Program-made: the position numbers and the translations under genes
In this document: one piece after another, positions 2,921-40,254 of the stretch
Layout of the letters: the number at the start of each line of letters is the position of its first letter
How positions within the stretch are numbered: position 1 is the first letter of the stretch
Notes under the pieces: generated by a model
Databases searched by the model: none
Seen by the model: the letters and a program-made list of their open reading frames with translations, nothing else
Told to the model about the DNA's origin: nothing
Virus record (IMG/VR): IMGVR_UViG_3300027819_000027
Span: 1 to 40,254 of that record
DNA length: 40,254 bases
Reading direction: 5' to 3' (one strand)
Source: a virus
Taxonomy: Duplodnaviria; Caudoviricetes

Positions 2921-3696
2921 AAATATCGTTTCGCTGAATTTATTAGTCTTTCAACATCCCTACCCTCAAGTGGCGGCGTACAGGAGGCAGCGCATTTTCT
3001 GATTTCTGATTCCAAATAATCAACGGGCATCTTCCGTTTAATCACGCCACCAGCTACCCGCATGACATAACTTTCTCGTTCCCCCAGGTTCGCTCCATAA
3101 CTTCCCCGCCATTCGCTCATATCAAAGGGCTTTCGTTCAAGTTTGTAGCGGGGCGCCGACCACATCGGAACTATCTGCGGCGGGAAAAGCTCTGTCAACT
3201 CCCTAAAGGTGTAAACGTAGCTGCTGCCGCTTCGGACTTTCGTCAAGAATGGCTCGCCCTTTCGATGGTAGAACCCGGGAACGCGCATCACCCTCGGTAA
3301 ATCACAGACCGCAGGATCGCCACCCACCAGCCGGGCAATGTTTTTTTGCATCGGCGTAAAACCCTCTAGGGGCAAATCCTTAACAACCCAGTAGCAATGA
3401 AACCTATTCGGCGACGTTTCGACAATCAATGTCGGGTCCTTGTCCAGTGAACTGGACAGCGGAGCACCATCGAGATCAGCAAAGCAGGCCCTTACTCGGA
3501 TGATGTTTTCCTTCTTTCGGCCCTTGCCATCGGTCTCGTTCACTGCCATGTAAATTCCCGCGCCATTTTCGTTTAACCGTTTCAGCCTATCAATCGAAGG
3601 GTCGTGGAGCACCATAGTAAGTTTTTTATTCTTGCCGGTGTCGTCAAAAGTTTGGAACGTCAATCTTCCTGTGAAAAGTTGCCAGAAATTTTCCAT
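2917..3696 (-). CDS. RepB-family (AEP) DNA primase with C-terminal helical domain
   Basis: FADLD, ETSPNRFHCYW, DLPRVMRVPGF motifs; start refined to ATG at 3696. Confidence 0.85.
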   Translation of the reverse strand: MENFWQLFTGRLTFQTFDDTGKNKKLTMVLHDPSIDRLKRLNENGAGIYMAVNETDGKGRKKENIIRVRACFADLDGAPLSSSLDKDPTLIVETSPNRFHCYWVVKDLPLEGFTPMQKNIARLVGGDPAVCDLPRVMRVPGFYHRKGEPFLTKVRSGSSYVYTFRELTELFPPQIVPMWSAPRYKLERKPFDMSEWRGSYGANLGERESYVMRVAGGVIKRKMPVDYLESEIRKCAASCTPPLEGRDVERLINSAKRYL

Positions 3697-6245: not shown

Positions 6246-6452
6246 TTAAATGAGGTCAGATATTTCTATCTGATATTTTGCCACAATCTTTTTTAGGTCG
6301 TTAATGTCCCACGTGTCTGCCTTTAACCAGTTGCGTATTGTCTCGTCTGATACACCAAGCAACCCGGCCAGATCAACATCACTAACCTTACGTAATGCCT
6401 TAAATGCCTTGATTTTCTCAGAAGTATTAAGGCCCTCAAATAATCCGCTCAT
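6246..6452 (-). CDS. Cro/XRE-type helix-turn-helix regulator, 68 aa
   Basis: DVDLAGLLGVSDETIRNW HTH; AAGGAG RBS; first gene after divergent promoter. Confidence 0.82.
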   Translation of the reverse strand: MSGLFEGLNTSEKIKAFKALRKVSDVDLAGLLGVSDETIRNWLKADTWDINDLKKIVAKYQIEISDLI

Positions 6453-6534: not shown

Positions 6535-6563
6535 TTGACAAACCCTTTTTCTTTTGCTAAGGT
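6535..6563 (+). promoter_or_regulatory. Sigma70-like rightward promoter reading into the cassette array
   Basis: TTGACA-N17-TAAGGT with extended -10 TG. Confidence 0.7.
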
Positions 6564-6584: not shown

Positions 6585-6872
6585 ATGAAGCCGAAAAACG
6601 AGTTGGTAGAAGCAATCAGGCGCCACGAACGAGACGCGCAACTTCTGCTTTACCTCAAATGTGTCCTGGCGATCGTGGGCCTTGCAGTGATTGTTCTGTT
6701 GCTTCGGGCCGCGTTCTTGGCCCCCGCGCCGATTGACCTCCCTGATCCAGATGCGGTGAAAAGGGAGGTCTTCAACCGCTTGGATGCACGGGGACTGAGC
6801 CGGAAGACAACGGTTATGATCGAGGGGGGAAGCTATAAGTTTGAATGGAAAGGGAGGTTTTATAGATTATGA
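6585..6872 (+). CDS. Hypothetical single-TM membrane protein
   Basis: AAGGAGG RBS; hydrophobic stretch. Confidence 0.7.
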   Translation: MKPKNELVEAIRRHERDAQLLLYLKCVLAIVGLAVIVLLLRAAFLAPAPIDLPDPDAVKREVFNRLDARGLSRKTTVMIEGGSYKFEWKGRFYRL

Positions 6873-7036
6873 GCCAGCAATCTGAGTGGGAAAATCTAAA
6901 AGAGCGGGAGAATCAGGCATCGATTGACCGCCAGTTCTATGACGAAGAAGAACCATACTGGCCAGATAACGAACTGCCGGGCATGTGGGAGAACGCTGAC
7001 TTTATGGGTGGGGCTGTTTCCGCTCGCCTCGATTGA
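6869..7036 (+). CDS. Acidic hypothetical protein, 55 aa; its C-terminus is encoded by the terminal attC
   Basis: ATGA overlap with upstream gene; MSQQSEWENLKE...SARLD. Confidence 0.55.
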   Translation: MSQQSEWENLKERENQASIDRQFYDEEEPYWPDNELPGMWENADFMGGAVSARLD

Positions 7037-7046
7037 CTGGTTAGAT
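6988..7046 (-). repeat. attC-like site z (last in array, degenerate)
   Basis: GGAGAAC...GTTAGAT; stem relies on G-T pairs on the + strand. Confidence 0.6.
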
Positions 7047-7059
7047 GGAGTAATTAAAA

Positions 7060-7245
7060 ATGCAAAGAATACTTGTGCCATTATACACACTAATATTTTG
7101 GAATAGATTGTTAAATGGAGATAAATCACCATACCGCCGATCCTCTATTATTAAGGTGAAAGGCTGGCGCACAATATTGGTTGGCAGTCCATTTGCGAGA
7201 GAAACAATAACACCACTGTTCAAATTATGGAAGTGGTACATCTAA
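7060..7245 (+). CDS. Cassette-borne hypothetical protein, 61 aa
   Basis: GGAG RBS; flanked by GTTAGAT/ATCTAAC; stop in core. Confidence 0.65.
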   Translation: MQRILVPLYTLIFWNRLLNGDKSPYRRSSIIKVKGWRTILVGSPFARETITPLFKLWKWYI

Positions 7246-7300
7246 CGCTAAAGGTCAGCGGCAGGCGCTTTTGCCTGTCCGCTGTAGTGACTGGTTATGG
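7240..7300 (-). repeat. attC-like site a
   Basis: ATCTAAC...CAGCGGCAGGC...GCCTGTCCGCTG...GTTATGG. Confidence 0.88.
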
Positions 7301-7366
7301 AGGTAACGCTCAAGCTAAGCGGCGTGGCGGTCGTTTGCCACGTCCGTCTTGAGCGCTTTGTTAGCA
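7301..7366 (-). repeat. attC-like site b (abuts site a)
   Basis: AGGTAAC...CGGCGTGGC...GCCACGTCCG...GTTAGCA. Confidence 0.85.
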
Positions 7367-7383
7367 GGTTTTATAGGAGGAAT

Positions 7384-7866
7384 ATGATACCGACAGAGAC
7401 ATGGGTTTTACCAAGGCCGCGTAAGAACAGATACCCAGGAGGATTTCCACTTCACTTTGAAAAGAAATTATGGAAACTTCTCGGCTGCCCCACAATGGTG
7501 TTGCATCCCTTTGGAGGAGCGGCGGAGATAGGAGACAGGGTAGATATAAACCCAGAAACGAATCCCAAGTGGATCGGAGACGCACACAAACTTGATATGA
7601 TCCCAGACCAAAGTTATGACCTTGTAATTCTCGATCCACCCTATGACAATGAACAGGCTGCCAAACTATATAAAACACCAAAGTTGCATTATGGGAAATA
7701 TGTATCTGAGGCGATGAGAGTTTGTAAGATTGGAGGCAAGGTTGCCATATATCATTGGGTATGGACTCCGAGACCGAAGAATGGAAAGTATTGTAACCGT
7801 ATCGTAATCTTGACAAGGGTATGGCACAGACCAAGGGTTTGTAATGTTTATTTACGTGAAAGCTAA
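7384..7866 (+). CDS. Cassette-borne small amino-(N6A/N4C) DNA methyltransferase-like protein
   Basis: LHPFGG motif I, DLVILDPPY motif IV; AGGAGG RBS before ATG 7384; stop in AGCTAAC core. Confidence 0.78.
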   Translation: MIPTETWVLPRPRKNRYPGGFPLHFEKKLWKLLGCPTMVLHPFGGAAEIGDRVDINPETNPKWIGDAHKLDMIPDQSYDLVILDPPYDNEQAAKLYKTPKLHYGKYVSEAMRVCKIGGKVAIYHWVWTPRPKNGKYCNRIVILTRVWHRPRVCNVYLRES

Positions 7867-7947
7867 CGTAGAGATAACCCGCCGGCCACCGACCAGGCGG
7901 TAAAGTGACAGGCGTGGTTCCGGTCGGGGTTGATTGATTTGTTATAC
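7861..7947 (-). repeat. attC-like site c
   Basis: AGCTAAC...AACCCGCCGG...CCGGTCGGGGTT...GTTATAC. Confidence 0.82.
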
Positions 7948-7973
7948 GGATTATTAGGACATGAAGGAGAAAG

Positions 7974-8129
7974 ATGCCTGACCAGCAACCCCACTGTGTA
8001 GGGGATATATACGGCCAATGTTGTACCGCTATGGTGGCGGAAGTCGGAAAGACGCTGACATTGGTGGGTCTCGATACCCTTAAAATCATGCACGGATGTC
8101 CTTTTTATTTATTGTTGTATAACGCTTGA
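7974..8129 (+). CDS. Cassette-borne Cys-containing peptide, 51 aa (MPDQQPHCVG...)
   Basis: AAGGAG RBS; read manually; cassette bounded by GTTATAC/GTATAAC. Confidence 0.55.
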   Translation: MPDQQPHCVGDIYGQCCTAMVAEVGKTLTLVGLDTLKIMHGCPFYLLLYNA

Positions 8130-8194
8130 CTTGAGCGGCGGGGGTTTTATCCCGTCCGCGCGTAGCGAGGATCGGCTGGAATGACTGGTTGGGC
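8117..8194 (-). repeat. attC-like site d (apparently chimeric)
   Basis: GTATAAC...GTTGGGC; the two arms resemble different attC types and pair poorly. Confidence 0.65.
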
Positions 8195-8208
8195 GTAACT
8201 TTTGGAGG

Positions 8209-8286
8209 AAACATTCAGCCGCCCGGCCACTGATTATGCTATTTGCACAGAGCGTGTTCCGGGTCGGCTGGATTAACAGGTTATAT
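8209..8286 (-). repeat. Truncated attC-like site e
   Basis: TCAGCCGCCCGG...CCGGGTCGGCTGGA...GTTATAT stem intact; left core and spacer shortened. Confidence 0.65.
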
Positions 8287-8307
8287 TTAATATTTAAGGA
8301 GTTTACA

Positions 8308-8463
8308 ATGGCTAAAATATTCGACATAGTGATCTGCCCCGTTTGCAAAGGTGAAAAATTAGTTGATAGTGGCCAGGTAATGAAAGATGCAAAAATCTAT
8401 ATTACTAAAAAGCAATGCCCAAAATGCAAGGGGCACGGAAGAGTCGGAGTAGAGCGAATATAA
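8308..8463 (+). CDS. Cassette-borne DnaJ-type zinc-finger peptide
   Basis: CPVCKG and CPKCKGHG; AAGGAG RBS; stop in ATATAAC core. Confidence 0.72.
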   Translation: MAKIFDIVICPVCKGEKLVDSGQVMKDAKIYITKKQCPKCKGHGRVGVERI

Positions 8464-8525
8464 CGTTTGAATTCAGCGGCTACGCGCGTTTCTTGCGCGG
8501 AGTCCGCTGGAATGATGGGTTGGCC
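8458..8525 (-). repeat. attC-like site f
   Basis: ATATAAC...TTCAGCGGCT...AGTCCGCTGGAA...GTTGGCC. Confidence 0.9.
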
Positions 8526-8568
8526 GGCACCGTGCCGCCAGCACCGACTTTTGAGACAGGAGATAGTG

Positions 8569-8772
8569 ATGACGATCAAATTCACCGAAGGCGAGATAAA
8601 GGCGCTCGAAGGCCACCCGGACGCACTGCGCGCACTGGCGGACTGGCACAGCGTGAAGGAAACGGAAGCCGACGCAATAGGCGGGCCGGAGATGGCGGAC
8701 TGCGTAAGCCACCATGCGGCGCGCTACGACGAACTGCGCGCAGAGGCCACCAAGATCGAGGCGGACTACTGA
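8569..8772 (+). CDS. Cassette-borne hypothetical protein (MTIKFTEGEIKALEGH...)
   Basis: AGGAG RBS; visibly GC-rich codon usage; bounded by GTTGGCC/GGCCAAC. Confidence 0.7.
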   Translation: MTIKFTEGEIKALEGHPDALRALADWHSVKETEADAIGGPEMADCVSHHAARYDELRAEATKIEADY

Positions 8773-8784
8773 CATGGTAGTGAC

Positions 8785-8841
8785 GGCCAACGACGAAATC
8801 AGCGGGGAGCGTAGCGAATCCGCTGTATTGATTTGTTATTT
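8785..8841 (-). repeat. attC-like site g (57 bp)
   Basis: GGCCAAC...CAGCGG...CCGCTG...GTTATTT. Confidence 0.88.
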
Positions 8842-8857
8842 TCGCCATGAGGAATAT

Positions 8858-9049
8858 ATGACAAATTACAAAATAACTCAATTAGTTAAAACTGCATACA
8901 AAAACAGATCAGAAATAATTTACGAAATTAGTAATGAGAGATATGCGCGTACTGAGTTTGAAAGATTAAAAAAAGATTTTCCCGCTGAGCACTTTGAATT
9001 GTTTAAAGCTGTGTACGATGAAGAGTGCTTAGACTGGACTGGAAAATAA
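8858..9049 (+). CDS. Cassette-borne hypothetical protein (MTNYKITQLVK...)
   Basis: GAGG RBS; AT-rich; stop in AAATAAC core. Confidence 0.7.
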   Translation: MTNYKITQLVKTAYKNRSEIIYEISNERYARTEFERLKKDFPAEHFELFKAVYDEECLDWTGK

Positions 9050-9132
9050 CGTCTGAATTGAGGCGAGCGGCGCAAAAGACTTGGTGAGGAAAGAAGCGGC
9101 TTTTACGCTTCGCCTCGAATGATTGGTTGGGC
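9044..9132 (-). repeat. attC-like site h
   Basis: AAATAAC...TTGAGGCGAGCG...CGCTTCGCCTCGAA...GTTGGGC. Confidence 0.88.
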
Positions 9133-9153
9133 GTTTGCCCGGAGAGGAACCGA

Positions 9154-9366
9154 ATGACAAAAGAACTACCCCCGCCAGTGACGCGGAAAAGCTCGAAAGA
9201 TGACCTTTGGGAAGAACTGGAGTGCGCCCGAGCCGAAATTGACCAACAGCAGCATGTGCTCAATGACTGGCGTGACCGTGTAGCGAAATCTGAGGCCGAA
9301 GTTGGTGGCCTGCGCTACCAGATCAGCGTGATTCGCGCTGTGCTGGCTGGGGATGTTCCACGGTGA
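9154..9366 (+). CDS. Cassette-borne coiled-coil hypothetical protein (MTKELPPPVTRK...)
   Basis: GAGG RBS; bounded by GTTGGGC/ACCCAAC. Confidence 0.7.
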   Translation: MTKELPPPVTRKSSKDDLWEELECARAEIDQQQHVLNDWRDRVAKSEAEVGGLRYQISVIRAVLAGDVPR

Positions 9367-9367
9367 C

Positions 9368-9407
9368 ACCCAACAGCGCAATAGATGGAATAATTCCACT
9401 TATTGAG
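9368..9407 (-). other. attI-like array-head site, copy 1
   Basis: CTCAATAAGTGGAATTATTCCATCTATTGCGCTG|TTGGGT on the minus strand; similar to 39476-39515 and 39932-39971. Confidence 0.65.
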
Positions 9408-9447
9408 ATAAGGGGGGGGATAAGGCGGAATTGTCAGCCCCCTTATC
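9407..9447. terminator. Inverted repeat between convergent operons, possible terminator
   Basis: GATAAGGGGG...CCCCCTTATC 10-bp stem. Confidence 0.4.
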
Positions 9448-14714: not shown

Positions 14715-17546
14715 TTATTGGATTGTGACTTCTCCCGTTGTTTTACCTTCCAGAAGCCCCATTGATATAAGTCTGGCTGTGAGTCTTTTATTCACCACGG
14801 TGGGAGATAGCCCCCGGCGAAAAAGTAACAAGTCCTTCGCTAATTCTGGATCGTACATCGCCCGTCTTAATAATGTCATTACTTCTAGCTCTGTCATGCC
14901 ATTTAGGACGGAAAGTGCTTTCTGCCCGGCCCGGACAATAAACGATCCTGCCGGCCCCATCTTTAACCCCGGCATCCCAATTACCTTCGAAAGTATGTCC
15001 GTCGCGGTTACTGCCTGCTCAGCGGTGTTACTTCCCCCCCCAAGCGGCGAAGGGATAGACCGATAAGACACCTCGATAGCTTTTTGCACATTCCTTAAAG
15101 CCATATATTCTTTAGACTTTTCGCCATAGAGAACTTTCATGGCGGGGTCATACTTATTGATAATATCTTGGATTTTCGTATTACTCATAATCTTCCCGCC
15201 AGTTAAGGCATCTGCTGTATTTTGCGAGGTTTGTTCGATGAAGTCCTTAAAGCCAATTTTTAGCCCTCGGATCGCGTCGGGGTTACCCTTCATCTGGTTA
15301 ACTAACTGCCGCATTATCTCGCCGGTGTTTTTGGCACTTACACCACCGCCCCCGCCCATTGCTGCGGAGATTGCCTTCGCTGGGTCAGCGTTAAGCATTT
15401 TGGCTGCTACTGTTTTACCAAAGGCATCTTCGGCCTGCTTTGCGGCTTCAAGTGTCGCTTGGGCTTTTGATATCGATTCATACTTCCCCGTAAGCCCGTA
15501 TTTGTCTAAAGCAATTCGATTCCTAGATAGCCACCTATTAAAAGCAGTCGGGGCTATTTCACCCGTTGTGGGGTTGACCGCCGCCGATTCCATATTATGG
15601 GCAATGAACCCATCCATGCTTTCCGCCGCTGTTTGTTTGCTTCCTAATGCCTTGATAAGCTGATCGGCATTGTCGGGTTTTAGAAACTTTTCTGCTATAA
15701 GCGCATCCGGGACGGCCCTGTTGTTTGGGCTATTTCCGCTTCTCAGAATATCCCTTACAGCCCCTCTGTCAAAGCGTCCAAATTTCTGATCTCGGCTAAA
15801 GTTCTTCGCTGTTTTAATCTGTTCAGCTACATTTCCGGGGTGTTGTGCATTGTCAAGCATGTCTTGTATTTGTTTTTTCTTCCCCTCAAGAACGGAAATC
15901 GCTTCTTGAGAAGTATTCGGTTTTAATGGGGGTTCTCCGCCCACATGTTGTTTGTATGCCCTGGCGATCTTGTCCTCAAAGCCCGCTGCGGTTTCTCCTT
16001 TTAATTGGATATAGTTATTTGATGGTACATTCTTCGCCTTTAACGCCGCCGAAGCTGCCCCAACATCAACGGGAGGGGGAGTACTTTTAATAGACGCGAT
16101 ACTGGTATCCAGGCGCGTTAGGTCATTTTGTAGTTTGGAAGGATATATGACTTCTCCGCCGTGCATCATTATATCGCCTTTGTCGGTTGCTGTCCCAAGG
16201 GACTCAATGTCGGCCCGTATTCCGTCTTTCACTTGTTTTAAAAAGTGACGTTCTGTGTTTGTTGCGCTCTGGCTATTTACGGCGCTGTCTATCTCAAGTT
16301 CTACCCTCCGTAACCCTTGAACTGTCCGAGGGGTCTTTTTGAATATCGCGTTAATCTTTTTAAGAATTGGCTCGGCGGTCGAGGGAGTCTTTAGCGCCGC
16401 GTCGAATGCTTGCACGGTATTGTCTGCCGGGATCGGAAGGTTCTCCACCTGGCTCCAAAGCCGTTTTTCTTCTTCCAAGACGGGTTGCATTGATTCCTTT
16501 ATTTTCTCAAAAACACCCTTCCCCGCTGATTGTGGCGTAGTAGATGAAAGGTTGGAAAGTTTGGTGTTGGCAACTGTTTTGGCCAGAGCTGTTGAGCTTT
16601 CAACCCCCGCCTTATTCTTGTTGATCTGTGCGATTGCGTCATCTATCGTCTGCCCACCGGGGAAGTTGTTTTTAAGATAATTTGATAATGCCTCCCTGTT
16701 GGCTTGCCTATGTGTTACTTCGACTCCCATTCCTCCCGGTTGTCTTGCAAGCCCCTGTTGTAACCTTATTAAGTCTGGATCGGCAGTCATCTCGGCATAC
16801 GAGGGTTTATACCCGGGAATGTCGGCGGCTAGTTTTTCGGCGGTCGAAGTGTTTACTGGTGCTTTACTGGTGTTGGTTTGAAGTATTTGTTTCGCCCGCA
16901 TTAGGATATCTTCACCCGAAACTACCACGCCCGTTCGTCCTAACCCCTTGGCCCACTTATATGCAAAGTTAATCGCGTTAGATGCAGCTTCGCCACCGCC
17001 TTGAAGCAAGGCGCCTATGTTAAAATCTTTTCCAGTCTGGGCTGTGCGCTCAAGAAAAGAAGGTACCTGTTTGTCCCCTGCCAGTTCATCCAGATAATCA
17101 GCGGCTAACTTTCCGGCAGCATACCCCAAACCTCCGGCTGCGATAGAGGGTGCGGGGTTGCCTGTTATAATATCAACTGGGGCTGCCAACAGCGCCCCGA
17201 CAGTCGCTCCGCCGGCTTCGAGGGCTAATCTACGGGCAGGCGACGAGGCTCGCGGGAAAGTGTCATACCTTTTATCCATTGCCGCCCATTCTGCGCTTGG
17301 AGAGACTTTAACGGAAGGCGTCGCCACTTGTGCCCCTGTATTCGGGAAAAAGCTGTTTACGGTATCTTCGGGGGAAACAGAAGCGGTTGGAGGGGCAGGA
17401 ACAAAGCCCGTACTGTCCAAGTAATAACCCCTTACCCCTTGGGGATTTGTTACCTTCTGCATTGAAGTTGCAGGGACAAACCCCGTTGTTTCATCGTAAA
17501 ACCCTTTTTCCCCGGCATCGTTAGTTACGGCTTGCATATTTACCAC
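14715..17546 (-). CDS. Large internal virion / DNA ejection protein
   Basis: 943-aa Ala/Gly-rich helical protein, third of three ejection-position genes. Confidence 0.7.
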   Translation of the reverse strand: MVNMQAVTNDAGEKGFYDETTGFVPATSMQKVTNPQGVRGYYLDSTGFVPAPPTASVSPEDTVNSFFPNTGAQVATPSVKVSPSAEWAAMDKRYDTFPRASSPARRLALEAGGATVGALLAAPVDIITGNPAPSIAAGGLGYAAGKLAADYLDELAGDKQVPSFLERTAQTGKDFNIGALLQGGGEAASNAINFAYKWAKGLGRTGVVVSGEDILMRAKQILQTNTSKAPVNTSTAEKLAADIPGYKPSYAEMTADPDLIRLQQGLARQPGGMGVEVTHRQANREALSNYLKNNFPGGQTIDDAIAQINKNKAGVESSTALAKTVANTKLSNLSSTTPQSAGKGVFEKIKESMQPVLEEEKRLWSQVENLPIPADNTVQAFDAALKTPSTAEPILKKINAIFKKTPRTVQGLRRVELEIDSAVNSQSATNTERHFLKQVKDGIRADIESLGTATDKGDIMMHGGEVIYPSKLQNDLTRLDTSIASIKSTPPPVDVGAASAALKAKNVPSNNYIQLKGETAAGFEDKIARAYKQHVGGEPPLKPNTSQEAISVLEGKKKQIQDMLDNAQHPGNVAEQIKTAKNFSRDQKFGRFDRGAVRDILRSGNSPNNRAVPDALIAEKFLKPDNADQLIKALGSKQTAAESMDGFIAHNMESAAVNPTTGEIAPTAFNRWLSRNRIALDKYGLTGKYESISKAQATLEAAKQAEDAFGKTVAAKMLNADPAKAISAAMGGGGGVSAKNTGEIMRQLVNQMKGNPDAIRGLKIGFKDFIEQTSQNTADALTGGKIMSNTKIQDIINKYDPAMKVLYGEKSKEYMALRNVQKAIEVSYRSIPSPLGGGSNTAEQAVTATDILSKVIGMPGLKMGPAGSFIVRAGQKALSVLNGMTELEVMTLLRRAMYDPELAKDLLLFRRGLSPTVVNKRLTARLISMGLLEGKTTGEVTIQ

Positions 17547-28432: not shown

Positions 28433-30517
28433 TTAAGCAGCCGACGAAATCCTGCAAGCCCAACCCGGATAGATGGTCTTCTGGCCAAACAGAACGTCGA
28501 TACGGCAGGGGAAACGATCATTGACAATATCAAAGTTTCTGACCACCCGGAGCGAGATGCCGTCAAAAACCTCCCTGGCCGCAAAATCTACACCCTTCGG
28601 CAATTCAAGATCGGCGCTGACAAAGGTAAACGCATCTTTGTGAAAGACCAAGTTCTGCCGGAACGCGGTATTTGATGTGCCGACGCCACCCGATGTAAGG
28701 AAAACGACCGTTGCCGTCGTGGAGCTGGTGCTGACAACGCAGTTTTGCTTGGCGCCGGACTTGTAGGGAGTGGGGCTGACAGCTACTGTCCACGTTGAAG
28801 CAGCGGTTGCTACCTGGGCAGCCGTGATTGACCACTGCTTTAGATTGCCCATAGTGACTTTGGTTTCCGGGTTCACATCATAGACACCAGCAATGGTGAA
28901 GATGTCGCCGGCAGACTTCGTGTCGCTTGCGGTTACTGCTGACAGAACGATAGTCGCTGTGCCATTAGTAATAGACCCGGTATCGGTCGTTTCACCAGTA
29001 GTAATAACGCCGACAGTATGAACCGGCGTCATTTCGGATTCGTAGAACTTGAACCCATAGACCTGGCCCAAAAGCCCGGTGTCGTACTGCTTGGAAATCT
29101 CCGCGGCTGGGTTGAAGATGTTATAGCCTGCCGTAATGATGCTGTTTGCGGCCAGCGCATCAACCATTGCCATCCGGTCAGAAGCCGGAGCCAAGTTCTG
29201 CGAAAGCTTGGCACGGGCGGCAAGCAGGACAGCCAACGTCGGGGCCGTGCTGTAATCGGTCGCGCTCGTGTGGACGTGGTTAGCAACATCTGGATAGCAA
29301 GCCGCAATAACGGTCTTGTCCACTTCAGCGGCCAGCCTTGACATTGCCGGGTTGAGTATCCGGTCTGCGAAATCATCCAGGGAAAGGGTAAGTTCCGCAG
29401 AACTGAAATTGATGTCAACGCCTCTCTGGGTCGCCAGCGTCAAGGTCTGTGTCGTTTCCGTCACATCCTGGGTATCCATGATGGCTCCACTACGGACAGT
29501 GAACTGATTCGGCTCCCGAATAAGCAAGGTTCCGCCGTTCTTGGCGCCTGACCTTGCGAACCGGTCATCATACTGTTTGTTAATCATCTTGGTGAAGACA
29601 AGATTATTGTGCAAACCTTTATATTCAAATGAGTTCGTTACTCTCACCCCGCCTTTCGGCTGCTGCATATTTCTATGCAGAGTAGACTATATCACCACCC
29701 ACGAGGGGTGCGCTGCGCTTCGAGTCACTTGACTCTACTCCCATGACGGGATAGTCGTTACAGGTTACACTATGAGGGCAAACTCCGTTGTTTTTAACCT
29801 TACCCCATTGGCAGTTCCAACAAAGAACTTGAAACCCCTCTGGAAAGTTATTTTTAATTAACCATCTATAAAATCTGGTGCCGCCAGTTTTTATTCCTGT
29901 TGATCTTCTGTGTTCAGCACCATCATTATTTATATGGTCGATAGTTAAAAACATCTCTTCTGCCTCTCCACAACAAGCACACTGGTATCCATAAGCATCG
30001 TAAACAGCGTCTTTAAGTTTTTTATTCGCAATTCTGACTTTTTTAGCCATCTTAGCGTTAAACTCAACACGCTCATTCTCACTCATGGAATCTATTTTGT
30101 CATGCCAACGATTCTTCATCTTTTCCCTGTATCTGTTCCCTTCTTTGGCACGCCATTCCCTGTTGTAGATATTGTAGCAAGACCTACATCTAAACTGCAT
30201 GGATAATTTACCATTGCTTTTTATCCGATATGGCAAGTAATCGCTTAATGGTTTGGTTATCCCGCATTTAGTGCATTCCCTCACAGTGTCTTCCTTCGGT
30301 ATTACCATATAGATACATCTCCTTGCAGTGATTAGTTATTGTGTAAGTATCACTTTTATGGTTATTATGCAAGAAGTTATTTATCATATCTACTTAGGCT
30401 TCCACCGAGTTCACAGCGTTCTTCGACATACATTGCTGTATGAAGCGACCTTTATTTGATCGCCAGGGCTTTCCTGGTGATATCGCCTGAGCTTAAAGTT
30501 TTTATGGTATTAGCCAT
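28433..30517 (-). CDS. Major capsid protein (P22 coat family), spliced: exon 1 30459-30517, exon 2 28433-29615, 413 aa
   Basis: AGGAGG RBS; joined frame MANTIKTLSSGDITRKALA-I-LHNNLVFTK; NLVFHKDAF, CRIDVLFG. Confidence 0.9.
29616..30458 (-). mobile_element. Group I self-splicing intron (843 nt) in the capsid gene
   Basis: P1 GCGAU/GUCGC with U-G at the 5' splice site; P3 GCUGUG/CGCAGC; P7 GACUA/UAGUC; terminal G; P10 CAAA/UUUG; removal restores the frame. Confidence 0.9.
29673..30308 (-). CDS. Intron-encoded HNH homing endonuclease
   Basis: CTKC...CRSC; CACC...LTIDHINNDG...QVLCWNC; AGGAG RBS. Confidence 0.88.
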   Translation of the reverse strand: MVIPKEDTVRECTKCGITKPLSDYLPYRIKSNGKLSMQFRCRSCYNIYNREWRAKEGNRYREKMKNRWHDKIDSMSENERVEFNAKMAKKVRIANKKLKDAVYDAYGYQCACCGEAEEMFLTIDHINNDGAEHRRSTGIKTGGTRFYRWLIKNNFPEGFQVLCWNCQWGKVKNNGVCPHSVTCNDYPVMGVESSDSKRSAPLVGGDIVYSA

Positions 30518-35657: not shown

Positions 35658-35990
35658 TTAGCAGCTCCTAAACGCTGGCGTCTTGTTCCCGTTTTTGGCA
35701 TGGATTAGGCGCGCTATGGCCTGGACCTGGGGTATTGTGATGTCTGGGCGGATAAATATGCCGTCGGGCGTCCAGGCTGTTATGCCTAGGTCTCGGCGCA
35801 TATCTAGATGGAGATCGGCGTCGAGGCGCACTAATCCAGTTGACTGGACTGGCACTCGGCAGGGTTGGCTGGGTGTTACATTTTGGGTGTTACATTTTGG
35901 GGGTGTTACAACTGATATTTGGCTGGGTGTTACATTTTGTCGGCGTGTCCGCTGATACTCTGCCATCTCTGTCGCGGTGCGCTGTTTCAT
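35658..35990 (-). CDS. Hypothetical protein with NVTP repeats
   Basis: AEYQRTRR start; first gene of the late operon. Confidence 0.55.
   Translation of the reverse strand: MKQRTATEMAEYQRTRRQNVTPSQISVVTPPKCNTQNVTPSQPCRVPVQSTGLVRLDADLHLDMRRDLGITAWTPDGIFIRPDITIPQVQAIARLIHAKNGNKTPAFRSC
35871..35939. repeat. Four GGGTGTTACA(TTTTG) direct repeats
   Basis: Copies at 35871, 35885, 35901 and 35925. Confidence 0.85.
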
Positions 35991-38034: not shown

Positions 38035-38053
38035 TAGCTGCCTTCTTGCGCTG

Positions 38054-38245
38054 TTATGTGGACAATACAGCATGATACGATTTATCCAGCAATGCCTTAA
38101 ATTCCTCAGCCGCTTCTTTGTCGAGCCAATGAAACAATCGTGGAGATTCAAAGTTGTGGTCTCCAACTGGCCGGACTGCCCACATCCCATAAAAGGATTC
38201 GTCGCAAAAAACCTCCCATTTAACCCGTATTTTTGTATCTCTCAC
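38054..38245 (-). CDS. Cassette-borne hypothetical protein
   Basis: GGAGG then GTG; stop in GTTATGT core. Confidence 0.6.
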   Translation of the reverse strand: MRDTKIRVKWEVFCDESFYGMWAVRPVGDHNFESPRLFHWLDKEAAEEFKALLDKSYHAVLST

Positions 38246-38252
38246 AATACCT

Positions 38253-38313
38253 CCATAATCAATCACTACAGCGGACGTCTAGGAGTGCCTGCCACCGCCC
38301 CTTGGCGTTATCT
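38253..38313 (+). repeat. Degenerate attC-like site
   Basis: CCATAAT CAATCACTACAGCGGAC...GGCGTTATCT; 5' arm nearly matches the minus strand of site a. Confidence 0.6.
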
Positions 38314-38490
38314 CTTAAGATCATCAATCGCATCGTCAAGTGTATCCGCAACATCCTTTAGACTTTTGACCGTGTACGTTCCGGGATGATCAGTCAACAC
38401 GCCGCCCATCGTGATTACATCCTTAACCACTGCAACAGGCGTAAGTGCTGTCTGGATTACTACCGCCGTTAATTTCCCCAAGAATCCCAT
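38308..38490 (-). CDS. Small hypothetical protein (MGFLGKLTAVV...)
   Basis: GAGGAGG RBS; stop in GTTATCT core. Confidence 0.65.
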   Translation of the reverse strand: MGFLGKLTAVVIQTALTPVAVVKDVITMGGVLTDHPGTYTVKSLKDVADTLDDAIDDLKR

Positions 38491-39048: not shown

Positions 39049-39459
39049 CTAGTTTGGCAGCTTGGCCAGGAGTTCTTTTAGCTCTATGATTTTATCTTCA
39101 TAGAAGCCCTTTGGAAGCTTACACACTTGGCGGCTCGCGTCCAGGTGTTCGTTGTACCTTTTCGCCCCGATTTCCCCAATCAATTTAGGCACAAATATTT
39201 CGTAATTGCCCCGTAACGGCCCGTTACAATAATAACACTGCGGCCTGACGACATCGTCCTGGAATAGGATGTAGTTTCCCCGCCCCCCGATCCCGTGGCC
39301 GGCTTGTAGGTTTTTCCAGAGATCAATTTTCCCGCAGGTGTAGCATTGGCAAAGTCCGTCATCGTAGGAATATTTCAGCCGGACCATTTTCGAAAACAAA
39401 TCCCAGCAATCCTTCTTCATCTGTTTAGGTGTTTTCCCTTTGGACTTTTTCTTTTCCAC
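39049..39459 (-). CDS. ninG: NinG/Rap-like recombination endonuclease
   Basis: W.LFS..VR...CYTCG...QAGH...RPQCYYCN. Confidence 0.8.
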   Translation of the reverse strand: MEKKKSKGKTPKQMKKDCWDLFSKMVRLKYSYDDGLCQCYTCGKIDLWKNLQAGHGIGGRGNYILFQDDVVRPQCYYCNGPLRGNYEIFVPKLIGEIGAKRYNEHLDASRQVCKLPKGFYEDKIIELKELLAKLPN

Positions 39460-39475
39460 TTTACCCCCTTGTTGC

Positions 39476-39515
39476 CTCAATAGGCGGAATAGTTCCGCTT
39501 ATTGCGCTGTTATGC
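39476..39515 (+). other. attI-like array-head site, copy 2
   Basis: CTCAATAGGCGGAATAGTTCCGCTTATTGCGCTG|TTATGC. Confidence 0.65.
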
Positions 39516-39755
39516 ATCAACAACACCGGTGTCCATCCGGTCATCGGCTGAAAAATGCCGCCGGTTATAGTTGCCACCGAGCGCCGATGAAAGCGCCTTT
39601 CCTTTTTCGTCATCGAACAGCTTCACAACCATGCCGTCAGGCCAAATCTGTGCGCCAATCGCTAAAACTTTCCCCGCCTTGTTTGCGTCGCGCACGGCCT
39701 GAAAAAGCGGCTCCAGCAGGGTTATTTGTTCTTCCGTCAGTTCAATTTTCAGCAT
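39510..39755 (-). CDS. Cassette A hypothetical protein, 81 aa
   Basis: GGAG RBS; bounded by GTTATGC/GCATAAC; stop in core. Confidence 0.72.
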   Translation of the reverse strand: MLKIELTEEQITLLEPLFQAVRDANKAGKVLAIGAQIWPDGMVVKLFDDEKGKALSSALGGNYNRRHFSADDRMDTGVVDA

Positions 39756-39774
39756 CTCGTTTCTCCAAGTTGTT

Positions 39775-39843
39775 GCATAACCCGGCAGTCCACCTGACCT
39801 GCCGCGATAAGGCCGCGTCAGTCAGGTGACTTTTGCGTTAGGC
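39775..39843 (+). repeat. attC-like site A (long allele)
   Basis: GCATAAC...GTTAGGC. Confidence 0.9.
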
Positions 39844-39931
39844 ACAGCCCAGTACCAAATGTCGTCGCGCAACTTGACACCCTCGGCAAACGGGTGTGAC
39901 CTTTTTCTTTTCCACTTTACCCCCTTAATAT

Positions 39932-39971
39932 ATCAATAGGCGGAACTATTCCGCTTATTGCGCTGTTATCT
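39932..39971 (+). other. attI-like array-head site, copy 3
   Basis: ATCAATAGGCGGAACTATTCCGCTTATTGCGCTG|TTATCT. Confidence 0.65.
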
Positions 39972-40151
39972 TTTAGATATTTCCTTTATTTCTTGCTCGA
40001 TAATTTTTTTACTATTTCTTCGCCGGGTAACACGAGAGAAAAACTTAGCTATTTTTCTGATCCCGATTATTTCCCACGGACTCCGGCCAGCTTTATGTCC
40101 CTGCTCCGTTTTTCGGGCATAATAATTAGCATAATAATTATTGTAACTCAC
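39966..40151 (-). CDS. Cassette B basic hypothetical protein
   Basis: GTG at 40151; AT-rich; bounded by GTTATCT/ATATAAC; stop in core. Confidence 0.55.
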   Translation of the reverse strand: MSYNNYYANYYARKTEQGHKAGRSPWEIIGIRKIAKFFSRVTRRRNSKKIIEQEIKEISKR

Positions 40152-40171
40152 GTGATCAACCCCAATTAAAA

Positions 40172-40230
40172 ATATAACCAGTTCACTCCAGCCGACCGCA
40201 GAATCGCGGCGGCTGACCTTTGCGTTATGC
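40172..40230 (+). repeat. attC-like site B
   Basis: ATATAAC...CAGCCGACCGC...GCGGCGGCTG...GTTATGC. Confidence 0.88.
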
Positions 40231-40254
40231 TCGATGTAGAGCACTCCGGCTGAT

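Follow-up and report, generated by a model that had tools for sequence, protein, structure and literature searches.

Antisense gene cassettes and attI-like heads in a P22-like phage genome, a probable integrase-free integron platform

Introduction

Integrons are treated as bacterial devices. In a complete integron the integrase gene intI is present in cis, and the cassette genes lie on the top strand of their attC recombination sites and are read from the promoter Pc beside the attI site. Here we describe attC-bounded cassettes in a viral genome of the Caudoviricetes (IMG/VR record IMGVR_UViG_3300027819_000027, positions 1 to 40,254; this whole stretch of 40,254 nucleotides (nt) is called the window), at 7-9 kb (array 1) and at 38-40 kb, in which 10 of 10 cassette open reading frames (ORFs) are located on the attC bottom strand, intI is absent in cis, and attI-like sites head the arrays. 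By definition these arrays are clusters of attC sites lacking an integron integrase (CALINs) and not a complete integron, since at least two attC sites on the same strand occur within 4 kb with no neighbouring intI, following the attC clustering rule in the accessible text of PMC4889954.

Several described systems resemble these arrays. The available part of Qi et al. 2023 (PMC9892861) reports 17 phage CALINs and the recombination of phage sites with IntI1 on the bottom strand; these CALINs share with the window several same-strand attC sites, the lack of intI and methyltransferase cargo, whereas the window adds an attI-like head and a natural excision variant. That part calls TJE1 and PH101 typical and makes no mention of antisense cargo. 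In our orientation analysis, the TJE1 array is canonical and the MW202573 array (L029) is inverted, with three covariance model matches opposite the annotated genes; the inverted layout is present in this published array without comment in the accessible portion of its text. As in the window, the phage that carries this published CALIN (L029, 2068-3890) is P22-like and has a ninG-like gene.

The sedentary chromosomal integrons of the Desulfobacteria class have in common with the window the attC family, an attI (in the window an attI-like head) ending in TTCCAYYTATT..CTG/TT (the slash marks the crossover point) and the crossover at the R' box, as given in the part of PMC2727003 that is accessible. 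The window, by comparison, has no intI and no Pc beside attI, its genes are antisense, and its expression would start at the far end of the array, with the newest cassette farthest from the promoter. Treponema/Spirochaetota have inverted-integrase ('reverse') integrons, which are likewise reversed against the standard layout; according to the available text of PMC4889954 and PMC9668308 it is the integrase that is reversed relative to attC, whereas the window has no intI that could lie on the attC strand and its cargo is reversed. In delta-attI-type class 1 cassettes attI pieces serve as in-array boundaries, and the unit 39838-39967 and the truncated head at 38046 resemble them in form; those cassettes, however, belong to mobile integrons that encode IntI1 in cis, and their resistance genes are on the sense strand (PMC12901181, accessible sections). 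Our literature search, with subscription papers outside its coverage, turned up no account of phage cassettes with antisense genes, nor of a host-type attI at the head of such cassettes, and the available text of PMC13323075, PMC11551772 and PMC8876359 holds no data on antisense cargo.

Results

Polarity of the attC sites and their genes

One attC motif was retrieved at 127 loci of bacterial genomes, which come from 15 of the collection's 64 parts, and a covariance model (R1) was built from 44 bacterial attC top strands, the strand of each being set by its own co-oriented ORF of at least 300 nt. Model matches at 7-9 kb are all on the minus strand, seven clear and one weak (8213-8274), and those elsewhere are on the plus strand (34-103, 39775-39844, 40172-40231 and, weakly, 38253-38314). 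Twelve of the 13 matches at E<=5 are these attC sites, the remaining one (17421-17455, 9.5 bits) being noise. Ten matches at 22-52 bits, one of them the left-end duplicate, together with the folds described below, show R''/R' cores with L boxes and bulged bases on one arm. The model misses other attC types (one weak match in eight loci); the sites in L190 and L266 were judged by eye and by folding.

The oldest end of array 1 is marked by a degenerate attC-like site on the minus strand (6990-7048; repeat families D2/D4; no model match), followed on the same strand by attC sites at 7239-7300 (52.2 bits), 7301-7366 (31.7 bits at 7304-7363, which ends a near-empty cassette containing a ribosome-binding site and nothing else), 7860-7947 (26.3 bits), 8116-8286 (an attC at 8116-8194 with 21.8 bits and a second, truncated attC at 8213-8274 with 12.7 bits), 8457-8525 (44.8 bits, with T and G bulges on the coding strand), 8784-8841 (40.3 bits) and 9043-9132 (36.7 bits). 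The plus strand carries a decayed attC at 38248-38314 (9.6 bits; 78% like the site at 7243), attC a at 39775-39844 (model match; crossover point between 39837 and 39838), attC b at 40172-40231 (34.6 bits; crossover point between 40224 and 40225) and, at 34-103, a hybrid attC of a short form with the body of a and the right flank of b (model match).

The preliminary description had proposed that all cassette ORFs run against canonical attC polarity, an assignment that depends on the extrahelical bases. DNA folding placed the unpaired bases of the coding strand on the 3' arm at 8462, 39779, 7244 and 40176, which is the layout that Table S3 of PMC9892861 lists for bottom strands assayed by experiment. 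The folds give canonical polarity, with which the natural junction described below concurs, and the opposite strand assignment was not seen. The proposed inversion holds: the attC top strand is minus and the ORFs are plus at 7-9 kb, both are flipped at 38-40 kb, and the model attC strand is opposite to the ORF led by a ribosome-binding site in all ten cassettes. Because the bottom strand is the coding strand in both oppositely oriented regions, polarity follows local transcription, and the opposite directions of the two regions on the genome argue against a replication-strand cause.

Array 1 starts with a tail gene on the plus strand (6869-7036) that reads through the degenerate first site. 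Its cassette ORFs, on the same strand, end with a TAA stop codon in the recombination core at 7060-7245 (61 amino acids (aa); 75% relative P0001), 7384-7866 (DNA methyltransferase-like; phrog_3816, E 6.8e-15; relatives L265-L267), 8308-8463 (51 aa, CXXCXGXG zinc-finger-like; PF00684 with E 8e-6, below its cut-off) and 8858-9049 (63 aa); that at 7974-8129 (51 aa) stops just inside the next site, and the others are 8569-8772 (67 aa) and the newest cassette ORF, 9154-9366 (70 aa). On the minus strand are the cassette ORFs 38054-38245 (63 aa, TAA in core), 39510-39755 (81 aa, TAA in the attI core; 16 relatives at 68-90%) and 39966-40151 (GTG start at 40151, read from the sequence), together with the tail gene 38308-38490 (phrog_33676; TAA in core, without an attC of its own) and the tail gene of the right-hand array (97-264, TAA in core). 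Searches of Pfam, NCBIfam and PADLOC named no cassette protein beyond the methyltransferase and one zinc finger.

Protein relatives on the bottom strand were found for three of the ORFs (7384-7866, 7060-7245 and 39510-39755). As shadow ORFs also occur on the canonical strand (7041-7241 and 7361-8089), one competing pair was compared directly: no relatives were found for 7041-7241 (minus), versus the 75% relative for 7060-7245 (plus). The seven coincidences of TAA with the core that had been noticed earlier (7245, 7866, 8463, 9049, 38054, 39510 and 39966) proved real, and two more were added (38308 and 97/40225). The stop falls in the core in 9/13 site-adjacent genes, compared with 4/46 other genes ending in TAAC; nine of the 11 sites that offer TAAC are used as a stop (p=0.0014 at one third).

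attI-like heads

Array 1 ends in an attI-like head on the minus strand (9368-9408), identified by alignment with bacterial and viral attI, which lies at the operon end and faces convergent lysis genes. On the plus strand, one head stands directly before the ninG-like gene (39478-39513), a second lies within a 387-bp unit (39934-39969), and a truncated core (38046-38057) shares 12 nt with the heads. The three heads and the truncated fourth have in common a short palindrome ending in GCTG/TT. In the bacterial contig L202 the head pattern has a match that lies immediately upstream of a divergent gene for an integron integrase (426 bits against a cut-off of 265) and is followed by a canonical first cassette. 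The L202 integrase has matches at E<=1e-110 in 43/251 genomes of the class of Desulfobacterales bacterium HSG16, which we take to be Desulfobacteria, and a related motif ending in CTG/TT occurs 130-200 nt from intI in 24/27 loci of this class with enough upstream DNA.

The head and the ninG start of the related phage L197 are identical to those of the window, but its first cassette differs, and the two sequences diverge right after the head core. In the phage-like contigs L189 and L190, whose heads reach 16.4 and 13.8 bits on the attI profile of the 24 loci, a cassette end identical over 50 nt occurs in both: in L189 it is directly adjacent to the head, and in L190 it is one position further inside the array and precedes an attC-like hairpin. 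Position, alignment and these swapped first cassettes support the reading of the head as a putative attI, whereas the profile scores of the window's own heads fall short of significance. Among 24 head-pattern matches in metagenomes, two were the window's own contig and five had a credible context (L189, L190, L197, L202 and, uncertainly, L198); the remaining ones looked like chance. L197 lacks the mini-array at 38054-38490 with its truncated head, and there a gap of 39 nt separates the flanking genes.

A bacterial-type attI pattern was detected in 19 viral loci, seven of which (five groups) scored 19-28 bits, in part a circular result because the pattern and the profile have a common origin; the other 12, with less than 12 bits on the pattern strand, were not used. 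All seven high-scoring loci have antisense genes led by a ribosome-binding site behind the attI, several of them with the stop in the core, and the attI of L279 faces convergent lysis-like genes as in array 1. No IntI above the cut-off was found in the ten viral records tested, three of them at least 90% complete; one related viral record gave a weak tyrosine-recombinase match (14 bits). Another viral search yielded 11 matches, comprising L257 (the same phage), L258 (with model matches), L261 (the contig of L279) and others that the covariance model did not support. L270 carries two full bacterial-type attI sites 1.5 kb apart (1966-2003 and 3491-3528), each closing antisense genes. Other inverted viral arrays (L013 at about 3135, L023 at about 3990 and L010 at about 5510) end in TAAC-led non-attC sites, which may be attI sites of other host groups.

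Natural deletion variant

The ends of the window overlap (1-102 matches 39742-39843, and 86-126 matches 40214-40254), and L157, a second assembly of the same phage (100% over 4777 nt), continues from the right end into 126-183, so that the map closes into a circle. The right-hand array is present in two population forms, as seen at the window ends and in unitigs, which differ by the 387-bp unit 39838-40224; the long form is also found in L157. The unit contains a cassette remnant, a duplicated ninG start, the second head, the ORF 39966-40151 and the body of attC b. In the short form, represented by the left end of the window, the body of attC a (39775-39837) is followed immediately by the flank of attC b, and 39838-40224 is missing. 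All that the two sites have in common is TTTGCGTTA; these 9 nt include the canonical G/TT point, and the junction lies within them. The junction agrees with canonical attC polarity and with the known rule that attC recombines only at the R' box (PMC2727003, accessible part).

Both forms are represented among the unitigs of two public runs, at depths of 17.5 and 16.8 for the long form and 11.8 for the junction, with flanks at 42-44; these runs may be one data set and the source of the window, so the depths stand for presence in reads and not for replication. The alternative form in which the body of b is kept, as expected from a crossover at the other core, is not listed, an absence that contigs cannot show. 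The stretch 39838-39967 is itself a chimera, in which the 3' end of a lost cassette gene is fused to a second ninG start and the second head (88% like 39445-39513), and it suggests recombination between two related phages. In run X4, contigs of related phages differ in the sequence behind the head (39441-39516), and at 40223 the tail gene is the same but is preceded by a different attC-like arm.

Orientation in viral and bacterial arrays

Cassettes were called between consecutive sites with the same motif in both collections. The caller took 75 of the 127 bacterial loci, leaving out 47, mostly with short flanks, and five that overlapped; on the viral side, the loci L029, L190 and L258 were entered manually. 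The 185 bacterial cassettes comprise 141 canonical, 7 inverted and 20 ambiguous ones and 17 without ORF, while the 43 viral cassettes outside the window comprise 31 inverted, 4 canonical and 3 ambiguous ones and 5 without ORF (Fisher p 5e-24, with rows within a locus and related phages being non-independent). The inverted class is thus enriched in viral contigs (31/43 vs 7/185). In the window, one of the four cassettes called was misjudged, the caller being misled by a shadow ORF. An earlier site-level caller was dropped as noisy (viral sites, n=26: 18 inverted, 7 canonical, 1 none; bacterial sites, n=133: 101 canonical, 14 inverted, 18 none). The preliminary description had gone further and spoken of a distinct, phage-adapted class. 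A distinct phage-enriched class of inverted arrays is supported by the counts and by the same layout in other viral contigs, and its adaptation to phages stands as a proposal.

Genomic setting

The window is nearly the whole genome of a P22-like phage of about 40 kb, with portal, coat, terminase, ejection, lysis, helicase and primase genes. It gave no candidate for the integron integrase (TIGR02249) or for any other tyrosine recombinase, and none appeared among the 60 ORFs scanned for gene identities. The rightward operon has a candidate sigma-70 promoter at 6535-6563 on the plus strand (TTGACA-17-TAAGGT, with TG before the -10 element), divergent from a repressor-like gene with helix-turn-helix matches (6246-6452); a consensus promoter scan does not list 6535. 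As first described, the head lies on the promoter-distal side of each array, and the entry of new cassettes there is supported by L197 and L189/L190; a head at the operon end applies to array 1 and not to 38-40 kb, where the heads are mid-operon, directly before the ninG-like gene. Right after the head of array 1, an inverted repeat (9407-9447) between the convergent cassette and lysis operons is possibly a two-way terminator by its sequence, though it is absent from the list of the terminator scan.

Blastn of array 1 against phage records returned no match, a plasmid search returned three short, uninformative attC-like matches, and a search for related loci with the 6585-6872 protein returned 59 candidates, none of them confirmed. 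Relatives of ninG were found in 28 loci, of which L158 alone is close; none of the other 27 has a match to the attC model. A 30-nt match of 39074-39103 in a 1329-nt unitig (run X2) continues into sequence resembling clustered regularly interspaced short palindromic repeats (CRISPR), and is probably a host spacer against the ninG-like gene that could name the host. Four intergenic copies of a 22-nt palindromic repeat (TCCAGT.NACTGGA; 3439, 5762, 35831 and 37156) are possibly operators, and short direct repeats (GGGTGTTACA) at 35870-35957, upstream of the small terminase gene, are possibly packaging or origin signals. Two HNH/endonuclease VII-like genes (2252-2920 and 29673-30308) were also noted, one of which sits between the scaffold and coat genes.

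Discussion

We consider it probable that the window carries an integrase-free integron platform, made of attI-like heads and attC-bounded bottom-strand genes, that would be worked by a host IntI. The IntI of a Desulfobacteria-type host would recombine the folded bottom strands in the ordinary way, with cassettes inserted at the head and excised between attC sites. Since the genes are antisense, each attC would stand in front of its own gene, the TAA stop would be the cassette-owned TTA of the core, and a cassette would be read from the upstream phage promoter through the older cassettes, the newest one last. The recombining strand would be the non-template strand, so that transcription could free it to fold and couple shuffling to expression.

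Several observations weigh against the preferred reading, a host-worked platform. The attI profile of 24 loci scores the heads of the window with 7.7, 3.0 and 2.9 bits; the head of array 1 is the top profile match of the window, but six of 20 shuffled windows also reached 7.7 bits, so that this match alone is not significant. An ungapped matrix ranks two heads 6th and 8th of 80,438 positions, with the third not among the best 16, and the phage-derived head pattern was found in none of 401 genomes of the phylum. Inversion is also seen in bacteria (7/185) and is not universal in viruses (4/43 canonical, and TJE1 canonical). Regarding the deletion variant, the depths of the two forms sum to 29 versus 43 in the flanks, and the 9-nt identity at the junction also permits a microhomology deletion.

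The explanation that fares best among the alternatives is that the arrays are inert relics, i.e., host integron fragments captured once and now changed only by homologous or microhomology recombination between phages. The decay of several sites (6990, 8213 and 38253), the 9-nt identity at the junction and the lack of an integrase in cis are in line with it, but captured host arrays would be canonical, as 141/185 bacterial cassettes are, L197 and L189/L190 have their breakpoints at the core, and viral contigs carrying different cargo show this layout again; we regard inert relics as unlikely. Still less probable is that an enzyme other than IntI, for example a Xer-like recombinase supplied by a co-infecting element, recombines the sites. 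The 14-bit tyrosine-recombinase match in one related viral record could be read this way, whereas the phage genome has no tyrosine recombinase candidate, the attC sites closely match bacterial integron attC, and the head resembles the attI sites that adjoin true IntI genes.

We also give very little weight to the hairpins being kept as RNA-level regulators (terminators or processing sites) with recombination as an incidental property: although the coding strand is slightly more stable in 8 of the 12 attC-type stretches folded and one site overlaps a terminator-like match, conserved AAC/GTT cores and bulged bases, the attI-like head and core-exact breakpoints are features of DNA recombination. 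A misread polarity, with the other strand recombining or the real genes lying on the other strand so that the cassettes are ordinary, is hardly credible, as the model, the bulges and the natural junction concur and antisense ORFs have protein relatives where the tested shadow ORF has none, for all that shadow ORFs exist on the canonical strand and one misled the automatic caller.

Turning to how a host-worked platform would acquire its reversed layout, we surmise that attC-bearing, often empty units insert at GTTA, the reverse strand of the TAA-C stops between packed phage genes, and that with two such insertions a resident phage gene would become an inverted cassette. Possible traces are the tail genes that end in TAAC without an attC of their own and the near-empty cassette at 7297-7303. 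Regarding the relatives of the methyltransferase, no attC is seen in L265 (83%), which ends in TAAC, and an attC-like hairpin of another type follows in L266 (70%); these are single cases, equally compatible with attC loss. An origin by attC insertion at TAA-C stops appears likely from the sequences. The inverted layout may be adaptive, perhaps selected as a firewall to host cassettes, or it may be a by-product of TAA-C stops serving as insertion targets, both being proposals. Core-coincident stops, empty cassettes and attC-free cargo relatives suggest a testable route from gene to cassette, cassette genesis being an open question. For annotation, tools that assume co-orientation would assign inverted genes to the wrong cassette.

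More tentatively, and against somewhat unfavourable odds in our own estimate, we speculate that phages whose hosts bear integrons keep a mirror-image cassette pool that hijacks the host IntI via a stolen attI, is orthogonal to the host pool and has genes made into cassettes de novo. Were this the case, host cassettes, including those for anti-phage defence, would be antisense and silent once inserted in the phage, those of the phage would in turn be silent in the host, and attC insertion at TAA-C stops would convert resident phage genes to cassettes de novo. Recent work casts integrons as anti-phage gene stores (PMC12614218 and 10.64898/2026.03.17.712381, in their accessible parts); if such a pool exists, phages with an attI and reversed cassettes of their own would use the same machine for the other side.

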